Virus record (IMG/VR): IMGVR_UViG_3300046008_000242
Span: 185,363 to 249,362 of that record
Direction: 5' to 3' (one strand)
From: a virus
Lineage: Duplodnaviria; Heunggongvirae; Uroviricota; Caudoviricetes
DNA: 64,000 nt
Positions within the stretch are counted from its first letter, which is position 1. Every line of letters starts with the position of its first letter. This document shows positions 1,786-59,811 of the stretch, one piece after another. The notes under the pieces were generated by a model. That model saw nothing but the letters and a program-made list of their open reading frames with translations, did not search any database and was not told the DNA's origin. The translations under genes and the position numbers were made by a program.

Positions 1786-2766
1786 ATGACCAGCAATAAT
1801 ATCTATATCGATAAAATAATCGAATTATCTAACGACAGCCCACAAACAGCAGAGTACATTCTAATCGTATCTAATGCCAGAATCAGAGCATCCACTAAAA
1901 ACGACGCAATTTCAATTTTAGGTTATACGGAAGAACATCATATATTACCCAAATCATTTAAGATGGGCGGAGCGACGGATAAATTGAATTATGCCTATCT
2001 ATCGGCAAGAGAACATTATCGAGCCCATCAATTGTTATTAGAGATGGGATTAAAACGTAATTTACACGAGAAGATGATACACGCATTTTGGTTGTTATGC
2101 ATCGATGGTAAACACAAGTTCATATCCGAAGAAGAATACCGAGAATTGAAGATTTTAAGAAGCGATAATCATAATATGAAAGATCCAGAATGTATCCAAA
2201 AACGTCGAGATAATAATTTGGAGAACACTGGATTCACCCATCCTATGAAAAATCCAGAATGTAAAGAAAAAAGTAGAAATACTAATTTGGAGAAAACTGG
2301 ATACGACAATCCTATGCAAAATCCAGAATGTAAAGAAAAGAAGAAACGCACCTTGGAAATAAAATATAGTAGACCATTGGTTATACAAATTGAACAAGAT
2401 ATAGAAAAATATAATATTATTAATCCAAGAAAAATTATGGGAATTAAATGCACCGATTGGAGACAAGTCGATTATGAAAAACTAGAAGAATGTTCTGTCA
2501 ATTTCTATAAATTTTTAGATGAACGTAAAATCAAGATAAAAGAATACGAATGTAGGATAAACGAGATTAGTTCCGCGTTTAAATCAATAGATGATAAACA
2601 ATCCTTAATGGATTATATCATAGAAATCAAGGATTTTTATAACATACCAAATCACACTGGTGTAATGGAAGTATGTCACAACTGGAAGAGATTAAATGTA
2701 ATAAAATTACAAATTGCATTAGGAAAATTGTTGAAACATACTATTGATAAATTTTATATGAATTAG
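1786..2766 (+). CDS. Mob-like HNH homing endonuclease, free-standing, opposite strand to its neighbours
   Basis: EEHHILPKS and AREHYRAH motifs typical of T4 Mob/HNH_3 enzymes. Three tandem NPECKEK(S/K)RNTNLEKTG peptide repeats. ATG at 1786. Confidence 0.75.
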   Translation: MTSNNIYIDKIIELSNDSPQTAEYILIVSNARIRASTKNDAISILGYTEEHHILPKSFKMGGATDKLNYAYLSAREHYRAHQLLLEMGLKRNLHEKMIHAFWLLCIDGKHKFISEEEYRELKILRSDNHNMKDPECIQKRRDNNLENTGFTHPMKNPECKEKSRNTNLEKTGYDNPMQNPECKEKKKRTLEIKYSRPLVIQIEQDIEKYNIINPRKIMGIKCTDWRQVDYEKLEECSVNFYKFLDERKIKIKEYECRINEISSAFKSIDDKQSLMDYIIEIKDFYNIPNHTGVMEVCHNWKRLNVIKLQIALGKLLKHTIDKFYMN

Positions 2767-5931: not shown

Positions 5932-6014
5932 TTTTAAATCCTTCTTTTAATTTGATGTAAATTTAAACCTCAAGAGTATTATAATCGATTTCAGATAAGA
6001 TTAAAAGATTATTT

Positions 6015-6386
6015 TTACATTCCTTTGATTGAACCATTAACAGTCGAAACTTCACCTTGGACACTTCCACCAATCTTAACGGATCCATTGGTAGTTTTTA
6101 CATTACCCAAAACGATTCCATCTACTTGTACGTTACCATTGGTTGTCTCAACATTATCCACATTTCCTTGTACAATAATCTTATCGCAAATATCTACATT
6201 TAATGATTCGATATCACCATTGATTTGTATATTGATATTCTTATCATCAGACGATTCTTGAATTTTATCATCAATATACACTTTACCGTTGGCAACTCTA
6301 ACATTGGTTCCAGAACCATAATTCTTACCATTTACAATGATAGAACCACCAACATTATCTGAATTAGATTTATTCCAGAACGCCAT
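6015..6386 (-). CDS. bactofilin-like (polymer-forming, beta-helical repeat) protein
   Basis: Short V/N/G repeats (NGKVYIDD, IQINGDIES, VQGNVDNVETTNGNVQVDGIVLGNVKTTNGSVKIGGSVQGEVSTVNGSIKG) resemble the bactofilin DUF583 repeat. The track start at 6422 is a TTG; the first ATG is at 6386 (MAFWNK). Confidence 0.4.
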   Translation of the reverse strand: MAFWNKSNSDNVGGSIIVNGKNYGSGTNVRVANGKVYIDDKIQESSDDKNINIQINGDIESLNVDICDKIIVQGNVDNVETTNGNVQVDGIVLGNVKTTNGSVKIGGSVQGEVSTVNGSIKGM

Positions 6387-6387
6387 C

Positions 6388-7077
6388 TTATCTCTCCATC
6401 TTCTTAAAAATGTTATTAACAATCAAAGGAACTTGCTCTCCTGCCTTACCTTGGAAGAACTCAAATTCATTATATACATGTTCTGGTTTATTAGGGTCTA
6501 CCAGTAAAATCTTACAATCTTTAGACACAGCATCAACCAGACTGGCGGCAGGATAAACTGACAATGATGTTCCAACCACAACAAGATAATCAAATTGTTC
6601 TTGTTTAATCATATCATAAACAGAATGGAATTCAGTTACATCTTCATGGAAGAATACAATATGTGGTCTTAACTGATTACCTTGTTCGGATAATGTTCCG
6701 ACAAACATATCATCATTCCAATCATATACAAATCCTGTTACCATATCTCTTGCTTTCAGTAATTCGCCATGTAGATGGATTACTCTAGTTGAACCTGCTC
6801 TCTCATGTAAATTATCAACATTAGAAGTAATCACTGTTACATCATGATATTGTTCCAATTCCTTGATAGCATAATGAGCTGGATTTGGTTCAACAGTCTG
6901 AACTTCCTTACGTCGTTTGTTATAGAATTCATGAACCAATTCAGGAGTTTCTCTAAGAGCCTTTGGTGTACATACATCTTCAATCTTGTAGTTGTTCCAT
7001 AATCCATCTGAATCTCTAAAGGTACTCAATCCTGATTCGGCTGATACACCCGCTCCAGTTAAAAATAAAATATTCAT
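6388..7077 (-). CDS. Sir2-family (sirtuin-like) NAD-dependent enzyme lacking the Zn ribbon
   Basis: GAGVSAESGLSTFR (NAD-binding), TSNVDNLHERAG, IHLHGEL (catalytic His). The segment where CobB and Sir2 carry CxxC...CxxC has no cysteine. Confidence 0.75.
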   Translation of the reverse strand: MNILFLTGAGVSAESGLSTFRDSDGLWNNYKIEDVCTPKALRETPELVHEFYNKRRKEVQTVEPNPAHYAIKELEQYHDVTVITSNVDNLHERAGSTRVIHLHGELLKARDMVTGFVYDWNDDMFVGTLSEQGNQLRPHIVFFHEDVTEFHSVYDMIKQEQFDYLVVVGTSLSVYPAASLVDAVSKDCKILLVDPNKPEHVYNEFEFFQGKAGEQVPLIVNNIFKKMER

Positions 7078-9071: not shown

Positions 9072-9596
9072 TCAATCATACACATACTCTAATGTATCAG
9101 TCTTCAAACCGTTCTCGATAATATCACAAAGAACATCTCCAACATACATCTCAAACTCTTCATCGATTGTTCCTACTCCATCAGGAACATAATGTACATT
9201 ATACTTGAATCCCAACTCTCTATCGTCAGATTCAATAGGTGGTATATGTATATCCTCGTATGACACAATATATCCATTAAACTTACCCTTCAACTCAACT
9301 GCTGTAATCTTATCACCTAAGTCATTGATATAACTGATTACTTCATACTTGTTAGCCGTTGGCTGTAAATCTTTCATGATAATCGGAATTGCTGAGATTT
9401 CAATGGTGTTATCGTATTGGTCTTCGACGGTAATGTTATCGTATCCAATTTTGTTAAGATGATTGATTACTTGGTCGAATCGCTGGTCATCTGTTATATC
9501 GGGAAATGTTGACAACTCTCTGATATTTGACTCTTGGTCTTCGATTACAATTGAATCTTCTAAGTATCTTACAGTGAAATTAGTCATCCAAATCAT
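9072..9596 (-). CDS. hypothetical protein, 174 aa, directly downstream of uvsX (the gene 40 position in T4 order)
   Basis: ORF track; overlaps the uvsX stop. No recognisable motif. Confidence 0.5.
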   Translation of the reverse strand: MIWMTNFTVRYLEDSIVIEDQESNIRELSTFPDITDDQRFDQVINHLNKIGYDNITVEDQYDNTIEISAIPIIMKDLQPTANKYEVISYINDLGDKITAVELKGKFNGYIVSYEDIHIPPIESDDRELGFKYNVHYVPDGVGTIDEEFEMYVGDVLCDIIENGLKTDTLEYVYD

Positions 9597-11055
9597 CCAT
9601 GTCTAGGTTATCTAATTCGTCTGTAATTGAATCGTCCGTCAACATTGTTCCATTAGCAATTTTATATCTGTCTTCAACCCATTGTTTAAATTTGTCAGAT
9701 TGGAGAATAGGATTCCAAAATTCTTTTGTATTGGTTTCTTTCAAACGATAATTTTTATCTTCAATTTCTCCAGTTTTTGTGTCGATTCGTTGATACCAAC
9801 CATTTTTCGGTTTAATGCAAATTCCTGCTTCTAATGCCATATCCATCAAACCAGACCATTTGGAAATCCCATTATCATAATTTACACAAATTGGAATTTT
9901 AGATTTTTCTTTAACAAATCTTGATTTTTCGACATTGATGATGAAATTATATCCAATAACATCAGTTCCATCTTTTTCTTGTTGTCGACCAATAATAAAA
10001 ATTGTATTGGCAGAATAATAGATTCCAGTATTATGAGTAACTACCCCATTTTCTAAAATATAATGTTCAACATCTTTGACTGAAATGTCATACACTTTAC
10101 GAGTTCCAACAGAAATAATACTTTTAATTTTGGAATTGCGTTGATTGTCTATACAAACCAATGTTTTATCTGTCGATAAATTTGACGCTTCAACCCATCC
10201 AGAATCTGTCAAGAAAGGATGATTTTCTGAAACAACACATTTATATCCATCTTCAAATTCTATTTCAAAACATTCAGGTTCTCCAACTTCTAATGTATCT
10301 GGATTCCAAATATGAGTAACTGGTTTAGAACCATTTAATGTTTTAACTAATTCTCCAACTTCAATATCTTCAATTTTTTTAATTGAACCATCAAACATGA
10401 TAAGATTAGTCCCAGCTTCTAAACAACCTCCACTAACTACAGCTGAGGGGAACAGCGACATTGAATCGTAAGTGTGATTCACACAAATCATTGGAATATC
10501 ATATTTAGTTAGATATGGAGTAATCATACGGAAACATGATTTTAATTGTTTTGCTCTAGTTAGATCCGATACGGACTTCTCTGCCAGTGAATCTTCGCGC
10601 TCTTTCCGTGAAGACATGTTACCTATTGAATCTACAACGAAAATTACATTTGTCTTTCTATCTAATGCATTTAATTGAGCCATCACTTCAAATTTGAATT
10701 CTTCGATATCCATAATGGGTACATGTAATACTCTTTCAATATCTATTTCGAATGATTCGAAGTAGGACTTTGGTGATCCGTACTCCGTATCCATAAAAAT
10801 TAAAACAGCATCATCATGTTTATCTAAATATGCCTTTGCCATAACTAGACAAAGCGACGTTTTGAACGATTTCGATTTTCCGCAAGCTAAAATTAAACCG
10901 CTAGAAATACCACCATATAAAGAACCAGATAACGCAATGTTTAATGCAGGAACATCTGTAATACATACGTCGCCACCATTAACAATTTTAGATTCCGACA
11001 ACACCGCAGTTTCTTTAATTGTGCTTGTTTTTTTCAATCTTTCCATTAAACTCAT
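9580..11055 (-). CDS. uvsX: UvsX RecA-like recombinase interrupted in frame by a 132-aa mini-intein (extein about 359 aa)
   Basis: Extein is collinear with T4 UvsX (Walker A ACGKSKSF, VCVNHTYDS, SANTIFIIGRQQEKDG, NVEKSRFVKEKSK, KPKNGWY). The insertion CLEAGTNLIMFDG...GVVTHN sits between SGG and TGIYYS, exactly where T4 has GGG|TGPMYS. Confidence 0.9.
   Translation of the reverse strand: MSLMERLKKTSTIKETAVLSESKIVNGGDVCITDVPALNIALSGSLYGGISSGLILACGKSKSFKTSLCLVMAKAYLDKHDDAVLIFMDTEYGSPKSYFESFEIDIERVLHVPIMDIEEFKFEVMAQLNALDRKTNVIFVVDSIGNMSSRKEREDSLAEKSVSDLTRAKQLKSCFRMITPYLTKYDIPMICVNHTYDSMSLFPSAVVSGGCLEAGTNLIMFDGSIKKIEDIEVGELVKTLNGSKPVTHIWNPDTLEVGEPECFEIEFEDGYKCVVSENHPFLTDSGWVEASNLSTDKTLVCIDNQRNSKIKSIISVGTRKVYDISVKDVEHYILENGVVTHNTGIYYSANTIFIIGRQQEKDGTDVIGYNFIINVEKSRFVKEKSKIPICVNYDNGISKWSGLMDMALEAGICIKPKNGWYQRIDTKTGEIEDKNYRLKETNTKEFWNPILQSDKFKQWVEDRYKIANGTMLTDDSITDELDNLDMDDLDD
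10030..10425 (-). mobile_element. mini-intein (Hint domain only, no endonuclease domain) inside uvsX
   Basis: N-terminal Cys codon (TGT; plus strand aca at 10423-10425). C-terminal His-Asn (plus strand att/atg at 10030-10035) followed by a +1 Thr. 132 aa, too short for a LAGLIDADG or HNH insert. Confidence 0.8.
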
Positions 11056-18085: not shown

Positions 18086-18257
18086 CGTCTAATCCTCAGT
18101 TAATTAACAACCTTGTGAACTTGGCATCCAACCTTCATTAGATTCATCCCAGCCATCTGATGAACTCCAACCAGTACCGTAAAAAGTCCCCATAATTCTA
18201 TATAAACCACCCATACATTTTATAAATAAAATTTTAATCATTCAAAATGAGATACAT

Positions 18258-31398: not shown

Positions 31399-31822
31399 CT
31401 AACTGTATCACCAATTCAATTGAACCTGGATATGAGATAACAGTAACTCCGTCGATCTCGTGTGTTTCTTTCTCATCTAATAGGTCTAAATTACAATCAT
31501 CCACAATATAACCAAACGATGTTAGTCGTTTGAAAAATGTATATGCTACATGATGTGGTGGATACATTTTGGTCAATTCATATGGTATCTCAAGCGTAAT
31601 GGCATCATTCATGGAAGCGTCTTCGATACAATCTTCGTATATACCATAAACATCTTCCACTCCAATATAGAAAATTGGGTTAAATTGTTTAATATCATGA
31701 TGAAGTATATGATTCTTTAAGATAACATCCATCTTAATATCCCAAGCAACCAATGTTCTTTCTAATGGATCCGTCTTTCTCATAAGACCAGATAATGTTT
31801 TTAATGCTTTAATGTTAATCAT
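31391..31822 (-). CDS. hypothetical protein, 143 aa
   Basis: ORF track. Confidence 0.5.
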   Translation of the reverse strand: MINIKALKTLSGLMRKTDPLERTLVAWDIKMDVILKNHILHHDIKQFNPIFYIGVEDVYGIYEDCIEDASMNDAITLEIPYELTKMYPPHHVAYTFFKRLTSFGYIVDDCNLDLLDEKETHEIDGVTVISYPGSIELVIQLDG

Positions 31823-31880
31823 AAAATATCCTATCTAAAAGAAAACCGATATGAACTTAATCATATCGGTTTGAAAAATG

Positions 31881-32453
31881 TTATACGTTGATACCAAATT
31901 GATTTGCCAATGTTTTTAATCCACCAGCATATCCTTGACCAACAGCTTTGAACTTCCATTCATTATTGTATCTATAAACCTCACCAAAAATCATTGCCGT
32001 CTCTGATGACATATCTTCAGTCAAATCAAATCGTAATACTTCAATTCCAGTGTCTTTATTGACTAATCGAATATACGCATTTTTAACTTGACCGAAATTC
32101 TGACGGCGTTGTTCCGCATCATGAATCGTCACAGTAATACTAATCTTATCGACAGACGAATCAACTAATGTTAATTTAATTGTAATCTGTTCATCATCAC
32201 CTTCACCAGACCCAGTCAAATTATCGCCAAGATGTTCAACCGAATTATCAACAGATTTCAATTGATTGTAGAAGATGAAATCAGAATCACTTCTAACTTT
32301 ATCATTTTTCAAAAGAAATGCCGAAGCATCTAAATCAAACGGACTACCATCAGTGGTTCTAGCATCCCAACCTAATCCAACAATAATGTTTGTTAAAGAT
32401 GGATCTGTTTTAGTTAATGAAAGATTGTTGCCTTTTTGTAATGTTAATGCCAT
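31881..32453 (-). CDS. TerD-domain stress-response protein
   Basis: [27 protein letters not shown] ... [15 protein letters not shown] ... [14 protein letters not shown] matches the TerD/TerE/TerZ pattern. Confidence 0.8.
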
Positions 32454-32464
32454 GATATGAATTC

Positions 32465-33148
32465 CTATAGATAAGTTTTTTGAATTGTTGAAATGATTCC
32501 GTCTAATGTTCTATCGTTAGTGGGTTCTCCGATGGCATTAAACTTCCATGAATCTTTGTGTCTATACAATTTACCAAGAACCATAGACACTTTATTGTTG
32601 AACGTTGAATCTTTTGCGATATTGTATCCAGCTAATACATCATCCACTCTAGTTGGAGTTCCTTCATAAATTCTAATTGAAGCAAATGGAATACTATCAA
32701 ATTGTTGACCTCTATATGAATTCAAAACAATAAAGATTTGGTCAACAGATGATTTCACTCTGGTTAGATCTAATGTGATGATTTCATTATCTAAACCATC
32801 ATCTCCGTTTGAATCTCCAACTAGGTCGTCGCCAGAATGTTTAATTCCAGTTCCATTTAATTTACCATAATAGATTGTCTCATCTTTAGAATTACCTTGG
32901 AATGTAATACAACTAACATCCAAATCAACAGCTGTTCTTCCAATCATACCCCAATTGACACCAACGCAGACGTTTGTTAATGATTTCCCATTCTTTTCTA
33001 ATGAAATACGTTGACCTTTAACCAGAGTGAGTTTAGGTTGTTTCTGTTGTTGAACTTGTTCGATTGAATTCTGTACAATTTGTCTAGTTGTATTAACAGA
33101 CCCTTCGATGTTATCGACCACTGTTCTGATTGCGTCAAAAATGCTCAT
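32465..33148 (-). CDS. TerD-domain protein (second, divergent paralogue)
   Basis: [24 protein letters not shown] ... [19 protein letters not shown] ... WKFNAIGE. Confidence 0.7.
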
Positions 33149-33223
33149 AATATATTTGTTTCCTTTGTTGACTTATTGTTAAACAAGTCAACATTATAAT
33201 GGATTTATTTAAAAAGTAAAGGA

Positions 33224-34693
33224 TTAAAGATTATCTGATACAATCTTACGAATTTCAGCTAATGATGTTTCCTTAACCAACTTGCCGTCTTTGAATACAA
33301 CTTCTAAACATCCATGTTTTTCATGCTTTGGTTCAACATTATCATTCAATGTATATTGACCATTTTCATGAGATACCATCAATAGACCTTTAGCTGATTT
33401 CTTAGTCCCATCATCCGTTTTTGGATCTTTGAAGATAACTCTTGATTTACCGTTAATTATTGCATAAGTGGATTTAAGTGCAAAACCATGAGTATCTCTT
33501 GTCACATATCCCAACGAATACGAACCAATTCCAAATACTATATTATTAGAAGCAAATCCTTTTTGTTCTAATCTGACGAAAATAGATTGTTGTCGATCTA
33601 ATGTGATAGAATCGCCATAGATAGTGCCAATTTTTGGATTTAATACTTTATAACCTTTAGAGTTAATTGTTCCACCAAAAGTATCCCATAAACATTCAAT
33701 TAAACCTTTGTCTTCTGGCAAACATCCACCTATGATAGGATATATTCCACAAATAATATCAACTGGGTCGCCTGAATCAGGTCTTATAACCAATTTACCT
33801 TCTCGGGATTCAATTCTATCCTTTAATGTAGGAAGATATTCAGTAACAACTTTCCAAAAATCATAACTATCCGCCACATATGAAACGATACCAGTTGGAT
33901 AAACTTCTGTTATAATTCGGGTCAACGTTTCTAATTCATCTTCGTGTCCTCCTGAACAAACTACACTATGTTCGCTTGCTGGTACAGAATATGCTATGTC
34001 CGTTGTTGCTCCATAATATTCTTTAGCAAGTAAGATAGCTGGTATCGTATCTGTTCCTTTTGAACCAGTTGCAATAAAAGCAAACCCAGAAATTGCAGCA
34101 GCTTCTTTACATTGCATACCTCTCATACTAAAATCATGTTGTTGGAAAGGAACAAATGAATTATCATCACATGTCTTTTCTGAAAACTCTAAACTTTTAT
34201 TATAAAATGCTCGTGATGTGGTTGCGGTTGAACAAGGTAACCAAAGTTCTGCGGATAATACAGTTTCAATCATATTAGTCACCCAGAAGAATTCAGGTAA
34301 CGTATTTTTAATTGTTAAAACAGGTACACCATATGGAACAAACGAACCTTCTGGTAACGCTTTAATTTCAATTGGAAGATACCCTAAGTCATATAACGAT
34401 TCAATATGACTGACATTAGTTTCTCCTAATGAATCATCAACAATTTCTTTATATGACTGGATAACGAAATCTTTGGGTTGTTTAAAGAATGTTTCGCCCC
34501 ATTCGCGGATTAAATGTTTAATAATAAAGTATTGTAATCCAATAAAGTAAATACCTTTAGATCCAGGAATGTTTGATAATCTACCCGAACGAGGTGTAAA
34601 GTTAGAATAAATTAATTCCGTCCCTTTTGGATATTGATTAACATGTGACACTTTATAAAAATCTTTTTGTAATGGTGCAAAATTTGTAGACAT
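33224..34693 (-). CDS. nicotinamide phosphoribosyltransferase family protein (NAMPT/NadV-like; alternatively a Namat-type NAD-reconstitution enzyme)
   Basis: 489 aa. N-terminal DFYKVSHVNQYPKGT (the NAMPT DSYK.THY.QYP motif), GTDTIPA, SVPASEHS, and the overall NAMPT length. The track start at 34705 is a TTG; the first ATG is at 34693. Confidence 0.8.
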   Translation of the reverse strand: MSTNFAPLQKDFYKVSHVNQYPKGTELIYSNFTPRSGRLSNIPGSKGIYFIGLQYFIIKHLIREWGETFFKQPKDFVIQSYKEIVDDSLGETNVSHIESLYDLGYLPIEIKALPEGSFVPYGVPVLTIKNTLPEFFWVTNMIETVLSAELWLPCSTATTSRAFYNKSLEFSEKTCDDNSFVPFQQHDFSMRGMQCKEAAAISGFAFIATGSKGTDTIPAILLAKEYYGATTDIAYSVPASEHSVVCSGGHEDELETLTRIITEVYPTGIVSYVADSYDFWKVVTEYLPTLKDRIESREGKLVIRPDSGDPVDIICGIYPIIGGCLPEDKGLIECLWDTFGGTINSKGYKVLNPKIGTIYGDSITLDRQQSIFVRLEQKGFASNNIVFGIGSYSLGYVTRDTHGFALKSTYAIINGKSRVIFKDPKTDDGTKKSAKGLLMVSHENGQYTLNDNVEPKHEKHGCLEVVFKDGKLVKETSLAEIRKIVSDNL

Positions 34694-34714
34694 AATATCT
34701 CTCAATAATTTATT

Positions 34715-35980
34715 TTAAAAATCATATAGTGGAAGTTTACCAACTAACCAATTAGTATCAACTGTTTCATTTTTGTTTAAAATTTTTTCTTCTTTTGTTG
34801 TTGGATTATACACCCAATGCTCTTTTCTTGTAATTACTATTTCATGAGGTTTGATTTCCGCAAAAATAATGTTATACACCCCAATCTCATGAATTGATCT
34901 TACTGTAGTTTTACCTTTATATTTTTTTGAATATAAACCAGTTTTAAATTCTTCAATTGTTATATAAACACGGTTTCCGTTCATATCAATTGCGGAAACC
35001 ATACCAATTGATGTTCCATTATAATTTCCAGAATCGAATTCTTCTTTAGAAATTTGTCTAGTTGTTCCATTTTCATCTTTTATTATAACTTTACCTTTAT
35101 TTACATGTTCATACTCATGTATATTTTCTTTATTTATTCGTAAATTATTTCCATTTTCGTCTTTTACAATTACAAAGCCTTTATTTACTCCATCATAGTT
35201 GCCAGAATCGAATTCTTCTTTAGAAATTTGTCTAGTTGTTCCATTTTCATCTTTTATTACAACTTTACCTTTACTAATACCAACAAAAATATTACTATAA
35301 AATTCGTCAGATTTGATCCTAATAATTTTACCATTTTCATCTAATGCTACGACAAATCCAGAACTAGGAGTAATATAATTTCCAGAATCGAATTCTTCTT
35401 TAGAAATTCTTTTTGTACATTCGGTATCATTTAAAATAACTACAAAGCCTTTATTTACTCCATCATAGTTGCCAGAATCGAATTCTTCTTTAGAAATTTG
35501 TCTAGTTGTTCCATTTTCATCTTTTATTACAACTTTACCTTTATTATTACCAACATAATTTCCAGAATAAAATTCTTTAGTTGTGATCCTAATAATTTTA
35601 CCATTTTCATCTAATGCAGAAACAAATCCTCTATTATAATAAAAATTTTCATATTTAGTTTTATATTTTTTATTATCGTCGCCGACCATCATTGTTAATG
35701 AAAATGACATCGAAAAATTTTTAGGGTATATTTTAGTTAATAAAATATGGGCAATAATATGTTGTTCGAATGTTAAAACAACGCCATTCCAAGGAAACTC
35801 TTTTATATTTTTATATTCTGGAAATAAATCTTTTGCTTTTGGACAAATATGATGAACTTCACAATAAATACTCTTTCCTATAAATTTATTTTTTATCCTA
35901 CATTTTTCTATGAAATTTTTATAATGATTGATATAAAATTCATTGCATGGTTTTGTTTTTAAAATTTCTAAATAATCCAT
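34715..35980 (-). CDS. Mob-like HNH homing endonuclease inserted between the NAMPT fragment and the full NAMPT gene
   Basis: EVHHICPKAKDLFPEY plus repeated GNY...KGxVVI modules. It is a paralogue of the HNH at 57006..58253. Confidence 0.75.
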   Translation of the reverse strand: MDYLEILKTKPCNEFYINHYKNFIEKCRIKNKFIGKSIYCEVHHICPKAKDLFPEYKNIKEFPWNGVVLTFEQHIIAHILLTKIYPKNFSMSFSLTMMVGDDNKKYKTKYENFYYNRGFVSALDENGKIIRITTKEFYSGNYVGNNKGKVVIKDENGTTRQISKEEFDSGNYDGVNKGFVVILNDTECTKRISKEEFDSGNYITPSSGFVVALDENGKIIRIKSDEFYSNIFVGISKGKVVIKDENGTTRQISKEEFDSGNYDGVNKGFVIVKDENGNNLRINKENIHEYEHVNKGKVIIKDENGTTRQISKEEFDSGNYNGTSIGMVSAIDMNGNRVYITIEEFKTGLYSKKYKGKTTVRSIHEIGVYNIIFAEIKPHEIVITRKEHWVYNPTTKEEKILNKNETVDTNWLVGKLPLYDF

Positions 35981-36500
35981 AACATAATAACCTTTTTAAA
36001 TTTAAGTTATAATTATTTATAAATTTTCTTGTCGCCGATGTGATAGGCAACCACATTTCACAACTCAATACAGTTTCAATGTAATTAGTCAACCAGAAGA
36101 ACTCTGGTTTGTTATTGATAACAGTTAATAATGACACTTTAAATGGAACAAATGAACCTTCTGGTAATGCTTTGATTGTGATAGGAAGATATCCCAAATC
36201 ATGTAATGCTTCGATATGAGATACATCCATATCTGTATTCAACATTTTATCCACAAATCGTTTGTATTTTTTAACGACTTGTTCTTTTGGTTTATTGAAG
36301 AAGGTTCTATTCCATTCATCGATAAGATATTCTTTGATGAAATATTGTAATCCTACAAAATAAACACCTTTACAATCTTTGATTCCAGAATGTTTACCAG
36401 AACGAGCAGTGAAGTTTGAATACACCACTTCCGTTCCTGTAGGATATTGAAAAATGTGTCCCAATTTATATGCGTCTGTTGATAATAATGCGTCGCTCAT
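35940..36500 (-). pseudogene. truncated NAMPT paralogue, N-terminal about 165 aa only
   Basis: MSDALLSTDAYKLGHIFQYPTGT...PEFFWLTNYIETVLSCEMWLPITSATRKF is collinear with residues 8-175 of the full NAMPT, at an estimated 60% identity. Reading then continues into unrelated sequence until a stop. Confidence 0.6.
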
Positions 36501-36726
36501 GTTGTTCTCCTAGTTAAAATAATTTGTTTTCTTTTACATTCATCTTGGTATGCTCGTATTATGCGTAATCAATAACATTTTTAGAATTTTTGTATTCTTA
36601 ATTGTATTAAGACCAAACATGGGAGTCAAATCAAGTTTATCACCGTTGCTTGTAACTTCCAAATCCTCAATCTTATTATTATCGATATTTCTGAAAAAGT
36701 CAAGAGCAGATTTAAAATCATTTAAT

Positions 36727-37134
36727 TCAACTTCCATTAGATTTAACCTTATGGATTAACATCTTACATAAATCATAAGTGAACGATAAACCAGCTCTGT
36801 CGTCTAATAATAAATTGAAGAACGGTTTCCTTGTTCTGTATAAAGGAGATTCATTAACATAATCAGGAACAATACCAACTGATTTACAATATGTAACAGC
36901 TTCTGTTAATTCGATTCCTTCTCTACATGTAAACAAGATTAGCTTACAATTAATGGATACCAATTCATGTAACAATTTAATCATCTCAGGATACGTATCT
37001 CCATTACCCTGATAATCAAAAATGGTATTGTCAAAATCAAATCCGATAAACAATGATTGATGTTTGTTGTATTCTTCTAATAATCGATTGAATGTATTTT
37101 GTTCATTTAAGAATCTATCTGATGTCGGTTCCAT
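36727..37134 (-). CDS. HAD-superfamily hydrolase-like protein, 135 aa
   Basis: FDFDNTIF (DxDxT motif I), then a Thr-containing TCREG block at motif II position. Confidence 0.5.
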   Translation of the reverse strand: MEPTSDRFLNEQNTFNRLLEEYNKHQSLFIGFDFDNTIFDYQGNGDTYPEMIKLLHELVSINCKLILFTCREGIELTEAVTYCKSVGIVPDYVNESPLYRTRKPFFNLLLDDRAGLSFTYDLCKMLIHKVKSNGS

Positions 37135-37135
37135 T

Positions 37136-37990
37136 TTATTCCCCTAATACGTCTAATACAATAACTCTTTCATCTGTTGATTCCTCGATGAATGAATTCG
37201 TAGTGTAAATTTTATCGATACAATCTTCAAACAATATGTCAACACCTTTGCTAAAAATGCCATGTGTAACATATAATGAAATCTTACCAACATTACGTTG
37301 TTTCAACACTTTGGCAATCTCTTGGAAGGTTCGTCCACCGTCACAGATGTCATCTACAATCAATACATCTTTGCCATTAAAATCGTCGCGATACACTTCT
37401 GTTCTAATGATATGACCATTAGAATCGCGTTCCTTATTTGATTGGACAACAGTTAATCCATATTCAGATGCCAATTTATAGATCTTCTTGCTTGCTCCAA
37501 AATCAGGAGATACCAATACGACATCTTTGAGTAAATCAATATCCATTGTTTCTTCAAACGATTTAATGATGGTATTTTGTTCAAAATTATTAAAATTGTC
37601 GAATAATGCTTTGGCTGTATCTGAATGTACATCTAATGTTGATACAGAATTGTATTCTTGTGAATTGATTAATTCGGCAAACACTTTCAACGATAATGAT
37701 TCTCCATCATCTGAGATCTTGTCTTGTCTTGAATATGGTAGATAAGGTAAGACCAAATCAATTGGTAACTTAGAACCATACGTTGATTTTAATGAATTGG
37801 TAACCATCAACAATTCCATAATATCATCTGATGATTTGATTCTGGTTTTGATTAATGCGGTGGAAATCGTATGTTTTGGTAAATCTTTTAACTGGACATG
37901 AACTTCACCACCAGAAAATTTAAAGAAGTTTGTATCAGTGATGATGATTGAATCTTCTTTGTTAAAAATTGTAACACTTACTATACTCAT
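37136..37990 (-). CDS. ribose-phosphate pyrophosphokinase family protein (PRPP synthetase, or Adps-like ADP-ribose pyrophosphokinase)
   Basis: FSGGEVHVQL, LPYLPYSRQDK, VLVSPDFGASKK, and the PRPP-binding loop DVLIVDDICDGGRTF. Confidence 0.8.
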   Translation of the reverse strand: MSIVSVTIFNKEDSIIITDTNFFKFSGGEVHVQLKDLPKHTISTALIKTRIKSSDDIMELLMVTNSLKSTYGSKLPIDLVLPYLPYSRQDKISDDGESLSLKVFAELINSQEYNSVSTLDVHSDTAKALFDNFNNFEQNTIIKSFEETMDIDLLKDVVLVSPDFGASKKIYKLASEYGLTVVQSNKERDSNGHIIRTEVYRDDFNGKDVLIVDDICDGGRTFQEIAKVLKQRNVGKISLYVTHGIFSKGVDILFEDCIDKIYTTNSFIEESTDERVIVLDVLGE

Positions 37991-38400: not shown

Positions 38401-38629
38401 TTTTCTTATTAAATTTTAAACAAAAAGAAACCCCAATTCCTAAGAACTGAGGTTTCTTTAATTATTTTAATTTAAACTTGATGAGTGATTCCACAAATTT
38501 AACATATTCATCATCTGTTAATTCTCCAACTCCTTTGTCCAAAAGATAAGTTGAACAGAAATAGAATAAATTGTTATCTTCATCATAGAATTCTAATTCG
38601 TCTTTCATATTATTTATACAATTCTCTGT

Positions 38630-55888: not shown

Positions 55889-56989
55889 TTATCCGAAGAA
55901 CTCATCCAAATTTGATTTTGCTTCAGTGTTCCATCCCAAAGGTTCAACCATATTTTTCATCTTAGATAAGAACGCCTTCTCAAACTGTAATTCATAATCA
56001 ACATATTTGTCAAGCTCAAATTCTTTTGGTATCGTATCAACAAACGCGATTACATTTTCTTTCAACGGATTTGGTGTCTTAAGATATGTGAATTTAATCT
56101 TATCGCCATTCTTAATCAATTGATGCGTTTTTTCCAATCCATGTTTTTTAATCATCTGATTGTACATAATTGAACCTCTAACATGGATAGGGGTTCCTGA
56201 TGCGTATCCAGATGTGGTCACAAATTTATCGATATCGGATACGCCAGATGGATTAGCAATTTCTGATATAGTCATATTCATGAATTGTTTTTTAATTCCT
56301 TCGACATACGTATGAATATCTGATTCTTCCTTGTAGAACAATATAGGTAATGAATCCTTTAGTAATGTTCTAATCAATTTTGGAGTAGATGATTTAACAA
56401 GATCTAATCCCATGACCTTTAATTTCGGTTTCTCGTATCTAACACCTTCTGAATCCCATACGTCCATGGCATAACGTTTCTTCTGTACGACAATAGAAGC
56501 AGCCGCAATGTTTTCGCGATCCATGACCATACGATTTTCATAAGCATGCATATATTCGGTCAAATTCTCAAACGATTTTTTAATAACAGGACTGATTATC
56601 TTTTCAGAAAAATTATCTAAAAAATCAACAATTTCCAATTCAGTCTTATCGGCGTAACCAGATATTTCAACAATTCTGTTTAAATTCAAGTAGTTAGAGT
56701 CAGTATCTACCATTATTACAAAGTCTATATTTTCAGTTTTACAACATTTGTTCAAAAATGCATTTAAATCTCTAGCAACCCATTGGATAGCAAGCCTTCC
56801 ACCTGTTGTAATACTTTCGGCTAATCTAACATCGAAGTATCTAAAGTATGGAGCCCCAGCTGCTCCAAATAAACTATTACTAGCTATTTTTAGAGCCATT
56901 TGAGCAACATGTAACATAGAAATCTCTTTTTCTAATGTTTTTTTGTATACCAATAACTCAGAATCACTCATTTGTTTAAATTCGTTCAT
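55889..56989 (-). CDS. 43: DNA polymerase gp43, C-terminal segment (43B): motifs B and C plus the thumb
   Basis: KIASNSLFGAAG is motif B K...NS.YG. IMVDTDSNYL is motif C DTDS. It has its own ATG and, together with 43A, gives 883 aa, compared with about 898 aa for T4 gp43. Confidence 0.85.
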   Translation of the reverse strand: MNEFKQMSDSELLVYKKTLEKEISMLHVAQMALKIASNSLFGAAGAPYFRYFDVRLAESITTGGRLAIQWVARDLNAFLNKCCKTENIDFVIMVDTDSNYLNLNRIVEISGYADKTELEIVDFLDNFSEKIISPVIKKSFENLTEYMHAYENRMVMDRENIAAASIVVQKKRYAMDVWDSEGVRYEKPKLKVMGLDLVKSSTPKLIRTLLKDSLPILFYKEESDIHTYVEGIKKQFMNMTISEIANPSGVSDIDKFVTTSGYASGTPIHVRGSIMYNQMIKKHGLEKTHQLIKNGDKIKFTYLKTPNPLKENVIAFVDTIPKEFELDKYVDYELQFEKAFLSKMKNMVEPLGWNTEAKSNLDEFFG

Positions 56990-57005: not shown

Positions 57006-58253
57006 TTATGATAACCAAACGTCTGATTCTGGATTGATTGTTAAAGATCCTTTTGTATAATCTTTACTACTATGAAATTTGAACGGAAATATAGAAATAC
57101 AAACATTTTCCCATTCTGCGCCAACATTATGTTTTTTTCTAGAAACCTTTGTAAAAATTCTATTACCATTCTTATATAGTTTCTTCAAATTTATTGCAGC
57201 TAGAATAACATTTTCTTCCACTTGTAACATATTACAAATATGTATATGATTCTGAGTGAAGTATTTGATTCCATTATATAAAATTTCATACACTGGAGTT
57301 GGAAATAATGCTTCCCAAGATGAACTAGGATATTGTTGAATATCCTTCATGTATTTCAATTTGGTAATTAAATTATAATGATGTTTGATAAATGTAAAAG
57401 GATTACCTCGTTGTCCGAAGTCTGCTCGTTTACATATCCACCCTTCACCATCTGGTTTAATTTTATGCTTAGTTGATTCTTTTGTTATTTCATTATACCA
57501 AAATCTAGCTTCTGTTTGAAATTCAGACATTTGATGTCGCAAATATTCAGGATAATCATTAGTGTATCCTTCTGGCGGTATTTCATCTGATTTTAGAAAT
57601 AACGGTTTCAGAGTTGGATGATACCAATGAACTCTATCCGATAATGCGACTGACGTCTTATTTCTAGATTCTTCATCTCGCAAAATTCCAAGAGGAATAT
57701 ATCTATCATAATCAACATCATCTGTTGACACTCTTACATTTATTTGATTTACTGTATCATAAACACCACATTTCCCAGAATGCATTTTAGAAGAACGATC
57801 TGACAATTTTTGCTTCACATCCGGAGTATATCTAGTTGGATCGTCAAAATATGCTCGTAATTTTACACTATTATTTTTAGAAGTTTGTTCAGAAAAATCA
57901 TTAGATAAATTTTCATACAATTTTGTTGATATTTTTCTTCCAGTTTGTTTATTGTGGAAATTTGTTAACATATTTGCCGAGTATATTACAGAAACTGACT
58001 GTCTAAACATTTTCCATATCATTAAATGAGCAATTTTATGTTCTTTTAATGTCAATACCGATTTATTCCAAGGATTCATTTTGAAATCAATATATTCAGG
58101 AAACAAATCCTCTGCTCTTGGGCATATATGATGTTCAGTTAGTTTTTCTCCTGGGGTTCTAATTATAGATTTTCTTGATTCTATAAATTTAACATATCGT
58201 TTTACAAAATGTAAATTGTGGGGTTTGGTTATTAAAATTTGATAAATGTCCAT
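57006..58253 (-). CDS. Mob-like HNH homing endonuclease inserted between 43A and 43B
   Basis: TEHHICPRAEDLFPEY is shared with the HNH genes at 34715 and 1786. Only 4 nt separate it from the 43A stop and 16 nt from the 43B start. Confidence 0.75.
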   Translation of the reverse strand: MDIYQILITKPHNLHFVKRYVKFIESRKSIIRTPGEKLTEHHICPRAEDLFPEYIDFKMNPWNKSVLTLKEHKIAHLMIWKMFRQSVSVIYSANMLTNFHNKQTGRKISTKLYENLSNDFSEQTSKNNSVKLRAYFDDPTRYTPDVKQKLSDRSSKMHSGKCGVYDTVNQINVRVSTDDVDYDRYIPLGILRDEESRNKTSVALSDRVHWYHPTLKPLFLKSDEIPPEGYTNDYPEYLRHQMSEFQTEARFWYNEITKESTKHKIKPDGEGWICKRADFGQRGNPFTFIKHHYNLITKLKYMKDIQQYPSSSWEALFPTPVYEILYNGIKYFTQNHIHICNMLQVEENVILAAINLKKLYKNGNRIFTKVSRKKHNVGAEWENVCISIFPFKFHSSKDYTKGSLTINPESDVWLS

Positions 58254-58257
58254 TTTA

Positions 58258-59811
58258 TTACAATAATCCGCGCATTTCTAATTCCTTTTTGACTAATTCG
58301 AGTTCTTGTTGTTTAGATAACATTTGTTTCTTCTTAGATGAACGTTCAGAATACATGTTCCGCATTAATGTTGAGAAGAAACAAACAATATCTTTACGAT
58401 AACACCAACCATTAGGAGTAATTGATAATCCATTATCGGGTAATGGTTTTTTATCTAAGCAGTATTCAACATCAATATCAAGATGAGTGGATGTTAATGT
58501 TTCTGGACCAATGTTATAATGTTGAATTAAATGCGGATACAATGAATTTAAATCGAACGATACAACCCATTTATGTTTGCCAATCTGCGGCGATTTAACA
58601 AATGCTCCATCAAACTGTTCGGATTTTGCTGTATATGTTTGAAACGGAGTAACCGTATTTAATTCTTCTTTCAAGTAATTATGAATGATTGCATCCCATA
58701 AATGAATAGGAGAAAACACATCTTCATAATTGATTCTGGCATAGTAAGCAAGCGACACTTGTAAAGAAATCATATTGAGTTTCTCTTCAAGTTGGATAAT
58801 CAGTTCCGCGTCGATGATGTTATAATCTGTAAATTTGTTCCAACATTTTTGTTTCAGTTCCGCATTTAGATCTATCCATTCTTGAGAGATATCTGGATGG
58901 AGATTACGTTCATAAGCAAGTTGTTGTAATTCATTACCATCCTTATCTGGTTTGGGTTCACCGTGTACAAAATTATAGAATGTTGTAAATTCATCATGAT
59001 TTAATTTGGCATGACCAAGAACCTTCTCTGCTATGGCATCAAGTTTATATGATTCTTCAGAACCATATGAATACTTCTTGTATAATGCTAGATAATCTAA
59101 TTGGGATACACCAAAGATATTGACAGTGCATCTATCGGGTTGTTTGTTATCGACTTTAACTTTTACAACATTCCAAGGGGATAATTGATTGGCTGTCTTC
59201 TCACCTAGGACAGCAACCATTCTATGATAGAGGTATGGAATATCGAAGAAGTCTGTGTTCCAACCCGTAATAATGTCAGGAATGGATTCTTTCCAGAAGT
59301 TAAGGAATTCCTTGAATAGATGTTCTTCATTATCGCATTGATGATAGATGACATCTTGGTCTGATGTATATGTTTTACAACCCCAAGTATGTTTCTGTTT
59401 GGATTGCATATCAACAATTGTAATCAGTACAATTTCCTCTACAGGATTGAACCAGTTGGGAAATCCCGCAGATACATCTGTTTCTATGTCAATCGCATAG
59501 ATTTTAACTTTTTCAAAATCATAATCCGTTACAATAGATTGAGGATACTTCTCAGAAAGGAATTGGTCACACCATGATGTATATCCATATAATTTTACAC
59601 CAGATATTCCTTTATATTGTTCAATAAAGTCTTTACAATCTTTGATTGTTCCAGGATTGATTTCATGCACTGGAACATCATCTAATGTCTTCCACTTGGT
59701 CGGTTGATTTTTACCAGTCATGAATAATGTTGGTTGAAATTCAATGATTTCTTTACCTTCCGGTGTTCTTAAATAGATATTATTGCCGTACGCATAAGCA
59801 TTTGTGTACAT
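58258..59811 (-). CDS. 43: DNA polymerase gp43, N-terminal segment (43A): 3'-5' exonuclease domain plus motif A
   Basis: YAIDIETD is Exo I. VVSFDLNSLYPHLIQ is motif A D..SLYPS. It ends before motif B. Confidence 0.85.
   Translation of the reverse strand: MYTNAYAYGNNIYLRTPEGKEIIEFQPTLFMTGKNQPTKWKTLDDVPVHEINPGTIKDCKDFIEQYKGISGVKLYGYTSWCDQFLSEKYPQSIVTDYDFEKVKIYAIDIETDVSAGFPNWFNPVEEIVLITIVDMQSKQKHTWGCKTYTSDQDVIYHQCDNEEHLFKEFLNFWKESIPDIITGWNTDFFDIPYLYHRMVAVLGEKTANQLSPWNVVKVKVDNKQPDRCTVNIFGVSQLDYLALYKKYSYGSEESYKLDAIAEKVLGHAKLNHDEFTTFYNFVHGEPKPDKDGNELQQLAYERNLHPDISQEWIDLNAELKQKCWNKFTDYNIIDAELIIQLEEKLNMISLQVSLAYYARINYEDVFSPIHLWDAIIHNYLKEELNTVTPFQTYTAKSEQFDGAFVKSPQIGKHKWVVSFDLNSLYPHLIQHYNIGPETLTSTHLDIDVEYCLDKKPLPDNGLSITPNGWCYRKDIVCFFSTLMRNMYSERSSKKKQMLSKQQELELVKKELEMRGLL

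Follow-up and report, generated by a model that had tools for sequence, protein, structure and literature searches.

We analysed a 64,000-nt window (positions 185,363 to 249,362 of the IMG/VR record IMGVR_UViG_3300046008_000242) and focused on a locus at which a fragment of a nicotinamide phosphoribosyltransferase (NAMPT) gene, a free-standing homing endonuclease gene (HEG) and a complete NAMPT-family gene follow one another. The source is an uncultured T4-like phage of about 249 kb; UvsX, a Dda-like helicase, an RNA ligase and a T4-type DNA polymerase are encoded in the window, and this polymerase shares 41-42% identity with its counterparts in marine T4-like phages. In the direction of transcription, a short NAMPT open reading frame (ORF) of 186 aa (36500..35940) comes first, followed by the HEG (35980..34715, 421 aa) and the intact NAMPT (34705..33224). 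For the latter the ORF finder chose a TTG start at 34705 (493 aa), and the probable start is the ATG at 34693 (489 aa), which lies 21 nt from the HEG stop (34715). A first-pass annotation of the window had already placed these three ORFs; their coordinates agree with the ORF list, and all three are on the minus strand. The locus is a putative NAD-salvage/anti-defence operon, running from a Prs-like (phosphoribosyl-pyrophosphate-synthetase-like) gene to the NAMPT-family gene, that has been invaded by a free-standing HEG of the Mob-type HNH class.

A truncated NAMPT gene upstream of a complete one

The short and the long NAMPT ORFs shared 97 identities over 161 positions in BLASTP (60%, E = 8e-67), with residues 4-162 of the former aligned to residues 10-169 of the latter, which bears out the earlier estimate of about 60% identity to the N-terminal part of NAMPT. 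Independently, a repeat finder reported the two NAMPT copies 1810-1813 nt apart at 71-75% nucleotide identity, and the similarity is far above chance. The fragment corresponds to the N-terminal part of NAMPT only (Pfam NAMPT_N, PF18127; positions 14-169 of 500 in PHROG 448). Against the NCBIfam model PRK09198 it scored 150.7 bits, under the cutoff of 405, and the catalytic barrel domain is missing. The intact NAMPT was matched over its full length by PF18127 NAMPT_N and PF04095 NAPRTase, and it reached 541 bits with PRK09198. Residues 1-157 of the fragment are wholly redundant with residues 1-164 of the complete downstream NAMPT, and tblastn found no third NAMPT piece in the 64-kb window. The intact gene would supply the enzyme, and the stub, which has its own AGGAG ribosome-binding site and ATG, is probably still translatable into an inert product of 186 aa. 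As a lesson for annotation, the 186-aa 'nicotinamide phosphoribosyltransferase' call denotes a remnant and no enzyme.

The fragment had been called a pseudogene, a term that fits the loss of the catalytic domain but not the state of the remaining codons. All 157 of them are free of stops and frameshifts, with a ratio of nonsynonymous to synonymous divergence (dN/dS) of 0.16 and a dS of 0.58 relative to the NAMPT of the related contig L001, introduced below. Among the 22 sites at which the fragment and this relative differ, the family-consensus residue is found in the fragment at 15 and in L001 at 6, and the single departure of the fragment at a conserved site is P123S. Since no decay was detectable, the truncation would be recent relative to the split from L001, unless the phage simply tolerates the fragment.

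The fragment and the intact gene belong to different NAMPT lineages

Two IMG/VR contigs, L001 and L002, share at least 17 kb of collinear sequence with the window, and the aligned blocks have nucleotide identities of 71-82%. At the syntenic position after the HAD-like gene, both carry a single uninterrupted NAMPT of 492 aa, and no HEG is present there. The second, uninterrupted allele that the first-pass annotation had proposed to search for in related phages thus exists. In blastn, window positions 36503..36030 matched L001 7998-8471 with 85.05% identity over 475 nt, which is the most similar long block in the neighbourhood; compared with the first 157 codons (471 nt) of the L001 NAMPT, the fragment is 86% identical in amino acids and 85% in nucleotides. 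The same 471 nt of L001 are only about 64% (nucleotides) and 57% (amino acids) identical to the corresponding part of the intact window gene. We hence assign the stretch 36500..36030 as the 5' remnant, codons 1-157, of an L001-type ('A-type') allele, and we refer to the intact gene as 'B-type'.

The intact NAMPT is the lowest block of the neighbourhood, at 69% nucleotide and 63-66% amino-acid identity to the L001 NAMPT, and its N-terminal 165 residues are less similar to L001 (identity 0.57) than to 10 other NAMPTs (0.61-0.70). The fragment stands at the other end, its dS of 0.58 lying below that of the flanking orthologues (0.82-1.65). Because the fragment has 85% nucleotide identity to the L001 allele and only about 66% to its intact neighbour, it is best explained as the remnant of a second allele, and the sequence comparison places the two genes of the window in different lineages. 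A simple tandem duplication followed by divergence is ruled out on the same figures. The earlier proposal that the locus is a scar of homing or allelic recombination, and not of a simple duplication, is upheld in this respect, as the fragment is closer to the L001 allele than to the intact gene.

The left junction coincides with the HEG leader

We then located the end of homology relative to the HEG boundaries, as the first-pass annotation had suggested. The 57 nt that end in ...GAAATGTGG agree with L001 without a mismatch, and similarity can be followed as far as ...GCGACA at 36030, where it is lost; at the protein level, homology ends after ...ITSAT (codon 157). Position 36030 lies 50 nt upstream of the HEG start codon, at the base of a promoter/hairpin cassette that forms the HEG leader (36029..35961). 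Past codon 157, the short ORF runs for 29 codons across this leader and, out of frame, through the first 41 nt of the HEG, which accounts for the unrelated sequence noticed earlier at its end. The left junction is abrupt (36030-36024), with at most 6-8 nt shared (AGAAAA / CAAGAAAA).

The 50 nt after 36030 are AT-rich and contain TATAAATA at 36021..36014, the ribosome-binding site AAGG at 35994..35991, and the HEG ATG at 35980. A hairpin spans 36027..35961, with the promoter motif in its 5' arm and the HEG AUG in its 3' arm; a 121-nt stretch of leader RNA folded to -22 kcal/mol (z = -2.74). A transcript starting a few bases downstream of TATAAATA would be without the 5' arm of the hairpin. The motif TATAAATA is the T4 late-promoter consensus. 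The window has 3 copies of it, where 13.9 +/- 4.2 would be expected, at 18221-18228 (+), 36014-36021 (-) and 38611-38618 (-), all just upstream of an ORF start, and this depletion and placement are consistent with T4-type late promoters in this phage. The arrangement of hairpin and late promoter is known in T4 for I-TevI, I-TevII, I-TevIII, segB and mobE (PMC2988022), and by analogy the HEG of the window is probably expressed late, as in T4. With its intact ORF, its own promoter motif and a hairpin that may mask the AUG, the HEG looks like an active, regulated cassette.

The HEG belongs to a mobile family

The HEG matched PHROG 655 'homing endonuclease' (3e-19) and PHROG 12434 'HNH endonuclease' (3e-11), and it is 25-31% identical to phage ORFs annotated as MobE, I-LimIII or homing endonuclease. 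The residues H43-H44, N65, H74 and H78 (ExHHIxPK ... WN ... QHxIAH) are in the consensus of a 38-sequence family alignment. In an AlphaFold2 model of residues 1-115 (predicted local distance difference test, pLDDT, 92), the motif residues are carried by a strand at 40-44, a strand at 66-70 and a helix at 71-84, so the modelled arrangement would place a catalytic His-Asn-His motif on a beta-beta-alpha unit. Pfam HNH models, a PDB sequence search and whole-chain fold searches gave no match to the HEG, and the one fold match that was obtained was weak. We accept the gene as a Mob-type HNH homing endonuclease on the PHROG families, the motif and the weak fold match; the earlier label 'HNH homing endonuclease gene' thus holds on these grounds, although the Pfam HNH models remain silent.

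The N-terminal nuclease domain of the Mob-type HNH class comprises about residues 1-100, and the C-terminal two thirds consist of six tandem repeats of about 30 aa (35577..35015), presumed to be DNA-binding modules. Repeats related to these follow GIY-YIG nuclease domains in other phages. The GC content of the HEG is 0.22-0.28, compared with about 0.32 around it. Within 35015..35629, the repeats of about 90 nt are arranged in a higher-order duplication (84% identity between 35126-35359 and 35396-35629, with several exact 23-nt strings in common), which suggests a recent expansion of the presumed DNA-binding array.

Paralogues of the HEG were found at other sites. About 21 kb from the NAMPT locus, the DNA polymerase gene is in two pieces on the minus strand, of 517 aa (59811..58258) and 366 aa (56989..55889), which are complementary (profile positions 9-499 and 498-852) and are separated by a 415-aa HEG paralogue (58253..57006) that is 40% identical in the N-terminal domain. 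The ATG of this polymerase-locus HEG lies 1 nt after a double stop codon, and the gene is without a promoter motif of its own. A third paralogue of 326 aa is located at 1786..2766 on the plus strand (phrog_655, 9e-22). In L001, a paralogue of 313 aa (5970-6911) is encoded on the opposite strand, with the Prs-like gene on one side and the HAD-like gene on the other; it has a different, Cys/His-rich repeated C-terminal domain, and the window has no gene at that position. Presence/absence polymorphism is evident, with no HEG at the L001/L002 NAMPT and three paralogues at unrelated sites of the window, and on this sequence evidence the HEG family is mobile in these phages.

NAMPT itself is a recurrent HEG target. 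In L087 (4001-6948), an unrelated phage contig from a metagenome, NAMPT is divided at about residue 260 into ORFs of 271 aa and 320 aa by the gene for a GIY-YIG endonuclease of 380 aa, with Prs-like and Tad3 anti-defence genes nearby. The C-terminal repeats of this endonuclease are 32% identical over 128 aa to the repeats of the HNH enzyme of the window.

Proposed origin of the locus

We lean, with restrained confidence, towards one-sided homing, in which a resident L001-type NAMPT was cut and then repaired from a donor that carried the HEG together with a B-type NAMPT. During a mixed infection, the endonuclease would cut the resident L001-type NAMPT near the conserved FFWxTNxxET...LWxPxTSAT region, its predicted target lying near codons 150-165, and the break would be repaired from a donor in which the HEG sits immediately upstream of its own, cleavage-resistant NAMPT. 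Homology would be usable downstream only, so the upstream end would be joined illegitimately, hence 'one-sided' homing. In the product, the 5' 471 nt of the resident gene would be left as a dead stub, the remainder would be replaced by the HEG and the donor NAMPT, and a stretch resembling L001 towards the 3' end may be the trace of gene conversion. The B-type allele has a 2-codon indel relative to the A-type at the break region, as would be expected of a cleavage-resistant donor. One-sided homing, with illegitimate double-strand-break repair at microhomologies, is described for T4 (Parker, Belisle and Belfort 1999, as summarised in PMC2988022). We infer the mechanism from its product, and which allele was resident, and with it the direction of transfer, likewise.

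The 3' patch (33382..33251, codons ~438-481) was examined by sliding windows, max-chi2 scanning, dN/dS and synonymous-codon identity. The last 60-70 residues of the intact NAMPT are 84-88% identical to L001, compared with 47-69% for other NAMPTs, and the patch was significant at the amino-acid level (p = 7e-5). The max-chi2 scan placed a breakpoint at about codon 419 (0/500 permutations), and an exact run of 35 nt is common to the 3' part of the intact NAMPT and L001. A second possible L001-like patch was seen at codons 172-216 of the intact NAMPT, where power was low.

Several observations weigh against one-sided homing as set out here. In the tail of the intact NAMPT, synonymous-codon identity was 0.66 (n = 59; range 0.66-0.73), compared with 0.54 in the body (p = 0.11) and 0.76 in the fragment (p = 0.16), and the best synonymous breakpoint reached p = 0.027 before correction. 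The patch is moreover bounded on both sides, as the resemblance to L001 does not extend to the last 8 codons or to the 75-nt 3' flank. Since it is internal and not significant at synonymous sites, we downgraded the reading of it as a clean 3' crossover or co-conversion tract to suggestive. Of the co-conversion tracts invoked in the first-pass annotation, the amino-acid signal thus stands, but the synonymous sites do not bear it out. The former 3' flank also tells of a more complicated history. The 58 nt that follow the L001 NAMPT stop have their counterpart in the window at 31873..31816 on the minus strand (86% to L001 9484-9540 in blastn), displaced by 1.35 kb by a pair of TerD genes, and the TerD pair itself (33148..31890) matches L001 3756-5006, upstream of the Prs-like gene there (blastn). 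The TerD pair now parts NAMPT from the sequence that once followed it, so that more than one event has affected the locus. The TerD module may have moved, or a segment reaching from the HEG to TerD may have taken the place of the 3' two thirds of the old gene in a single step.

To these points we add that the intact NAMPT, being no more diverged from L001 than its Prs-like neighbour, could have been inherited vertically, and that the AGAAAA microhomology at the junction is ambiguous. A donor with the HEG and a B-type NAMPT but without the stub was not found in IMG/VR or the protein database. The HEG query gave no match in IMG/VR and, in a search of 5.8 billion proteins, only the source contig and otherwise sequences of at most 39% identity; the B-type NAMPT had no relative above 68% identity, the value of its nearest database protein. 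The arrangement was seen at 0 of 83 other NAMPT loci in IMG/VR, the locus is known from one metagenomic contig, and both the cleavage by the HEG and its target site are predictions from sequence.

The opposite direction of transfer is the alternative that we take most seriously, though we judge it unlikely. Here the B-type NAMPT would be resident, and the A-type stub with the HEG would have come from a donor split at codon 157 and been inserted ectopically just upstream of the resident start. The divergence of the intact NAMPT from L001 (69% nt) is indeed near that of the adjacent Prs-like gene (71% nt), while the fragment is closer to L001 (85% nt, dS 0.58) than any flanking orthologue (dS 0.82-1.65), which fits a more recent transfer of the A-type; the high-identity block begins abruptly at the NAMPT start codon, the small ORFs upstream being unrelated, and HEGs of this family do split genes, such as that of the DNA polymerase. 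Such a course, however, requires an illegitimate join at the 3' end of the HEG, placed precisely 21 nt before the resident start, and a left crossover exactly at the NAMPT ATG, and it leaves both the 3' L001-like patch and the L001-like former flank at 31873..31816 unexplained; with a split donor, ordinary homing would interrupt the resident gene without duplicating its 5' end. We hold a two-step history to be distinctly improbable. In it, the HEG first splits the resident A-type NAMPT, and the orphan 3' piece is later replaced by, or recombined with, a complete foreign NAMPT that restores the enzyme. Gene pieces made by the same HEG family 21 kb away, the split NAMPT of L087, the L001-like sequence that survives towards the end of the intact NAMPT and the evidence of more than one rearrangement (TerD relocation) would all suit it. 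It demands an additional illegitimate event at the 3' end of the HEG, no intermediate was found among IMG/VR NAMPT loci or in protein searches, and the undecayed fragment argues against a long period with a broken gene.

There is very little chance that selection maintains the 186-aa product as a functional NAMPT N-terminal domain in its own right, which might for instance regulate the dimeric enzyme or serve as its partner. Its open frame, good ribosome-binding site, dN/dS of 0.16 and retained conserved residues would agree with this, as would the many short NAMPT_N-only ORFs in metagenomes and some bacterial genomes. Yet a low dN/dS between two lineages mostly reflects the history before truncation, the last 29 residues come from reading on across a promoter and an out-of-frame HEG start, the protein cluster of the fragment has one member, and the other short NAMPT ORFs examined proved to be frameshifts, internal deletions, contig ends or HEG splits. 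Slimmer still is the prospect of an assembly chimera of two co-occurring strains with different NAMPT alleles. The locus is on one contig (249,362 bp), and the fragment, the HEG and the intact NAMPT each form single-member protein clusters, with one occurrence in the protein database, all on the source contig; on the other hand, no repeat longer than 16 nt is common with the junction, which makes an assembly error unlikely, nucleotide identity between the A and B alleles is only about 66%, and the junction coincides with a coherent cassette of promoter, hairpin, ribosome-binding site and ORF. A group I intron bearing the HEG within one spliced NAMPT gene, the structure that the first-pass annotation had named as contrary to its own reading, has next to no probability, even though the broad HEG family is intron-borne in some phages and I-LimIII and a 'group I intron endonuclease' are among the distant matches. 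The downstream NAMPT is complete from residue 1 with its own start, and the sole possible 'exon 2' would need a 1.8-kb 'intron' containing 164 conserved NAMPT codons. A cmscan search of 32500..37500 against Rfam 15 (E <= 10) returned three sub-threshold matches, none of them to group I, group II or other intron families. With no intron RNA and a complete downstream gene, a spliced gene was ruled out.

Relation to known systems

HEG insertion, gene splitting, replacement of flanking markers and illegitimate homing are all established in T4-like phages. The present locus adds a well-preserved example whose product is unusual, in that a stub is accompanied by a complete foreign allele, and represents no new mechanism or kind of element. 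Like the Mob-type free-standing HEGs and their kin in T4-like phages (mobE, mobA, SegF/SegG; PMC2988022; for mobE, PMC2790892), the HEG lies between or inside conserved genes, is absent from the same site in a relative, is an AT-rich ORF preceded by a late promoter and a translation-masking hairpin, and has a flank of foreign ancestry. It differs from annotated Mob and homing endonucleases in its low identity to them (25-31%), in being missed by the Pfam HNH models and in its six C-terminal repeats of about 30 aa, and it is known from sequence alone. In the one-sided homing of Parker, Belisle and Belfort (1999), as given in PMC2988022, homology serves on one side and the other junction is non-homologous, at or near the break; an event of this kind would be required here to place the incoming element beside a truncated recipient copy. 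According to that summary, engineered td-intron substrates were used, whereas here the HEG is natural and free-standing, a whole heterologous gene would be the cargo, and the mechanism is deduced backwards from what it left.

In other cases of genes in pieces (Aeh1 nrdA split by mobE, PMC3045599; gene 43 of Aeromonas phage 25; T4 genes 60/39), a HEG likewise interrupts the coding sequence of a conserved enzyme and is preceded by an ORF for the N-terminal part. At the NAMPT locus, in contrast, the downstream gene is a complete gene of another lineage and no complementary C-terminal piece, so the upstream piece is redundant and not a subunit. Segmental amplification mediated by SegB has been shown to remodel phage anti-defence loci (PMC13096335); the NAMPT locus has no amplification but a partial duplication with allele replacement, and its link to the HEG is positional only. 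A Prs-family gene paired with a NAMPT-family gene is the signature of phage NAD+ reconstitution (NARP1/NARP2), which counters NAD+-depleting defence (bioRxiv 10.1101/2024.02.11.579819). The Prs-family gene of the window is 2-3 genes upstream of NAMPT, and the two are directly adjacent in the relatives L004 and L006, which agrees with that signature at the level of gene family; the pair may be NARP1 (Adps/Namat) or a Prs/Nampt salvage pair.

As a natural example of homing endonucleases remodelling phage genes, the locus ties endonuclease mobility to a type of gene now known to counter NAD+-depleting bacterial immunity. If one-sided homing is the correct reading, the locus still displays all the participants, namely a broken recipient allele, a HEG with its own signals and a complete foreign allele, while a relative holds the uninterrupted reference allele. 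A bolder proposal, which we put forward as doubtful, is that the HEG and the complete NAMPT form one mobile unit that cuts rival anti-defence alleles and installs its own linked allele. HEGs would then drive allele turnover at counter-defence loci, with WxPxTSAT as a recurrent break point, and this would also account for internally deleted NAMPT remnants in unrelated phages.

Neighbouring genes and further NAMPT remnants

Truncated or deleted NAMPT remnants were observed in unrelated phages (L085, P0194, P0199 and P0228), with the left break within a few codons of WxPxTSAT, where the fragment of the window ends. In L085 (5001-5575), about residue 160 is joined to about residue 451, and in P0194 about residue 159 is joined in frame to about residue 390. 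We make no claim of a hot spot at NAMPT residue ~160 (L085, P0194, P0228), as the excess was weak (16 compared with about 10 per bin) and the protein set was limited by length. In L086 (5001-6544), NAMPT is present as overlapping ORFs of 201 aa and 313 aa with an apparent frameshift and no inserted gene, and its N-terminal piece belongs to a protein cluster with 43 member sequences.

Upstream of the fragment, also on the minus strand, are the Prs-like gene (37990..37136, 284 aa; Pfam Pribosyltran_N, Pribosyltran and Pribosyl_synth), a HAD-like ORF (37134..36727, 135 aa) and a small ORF (36737..36540, 65 aa). The Prs-like gene, which would be the functional partner of the NAMPT-family gene, is syntenic with L001 5115-5969, at 66% amino-acid and 71% nucleotide identity. 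Downstream of the intact NAMPT, the two TerD genes (33148..31881, minus strand) encode 227 aa and 190 aa. A spacer of 75 nt separates the first of them from the NAMPT stop, and in it lies a perfect 8-bp inverted repeat, GTTGACTT ... AAGTCAAC, at 33192..33167 on the minus strand, with a TTGACT hexamer. This post-NAMPT hairpin is unique in the window, and a repeated promoter/stem-loop cassette acting as a recombination site was accordingly ruled out.

Elsewhere in the window, the UvsX profile covers residues 1-211 and 309-484 of a UvsX-like recombinase of 491 aa (9580..11055, minus strand), and the roughly 100 unmatched central residues may represent an insertion or the remnant of a mobile element.

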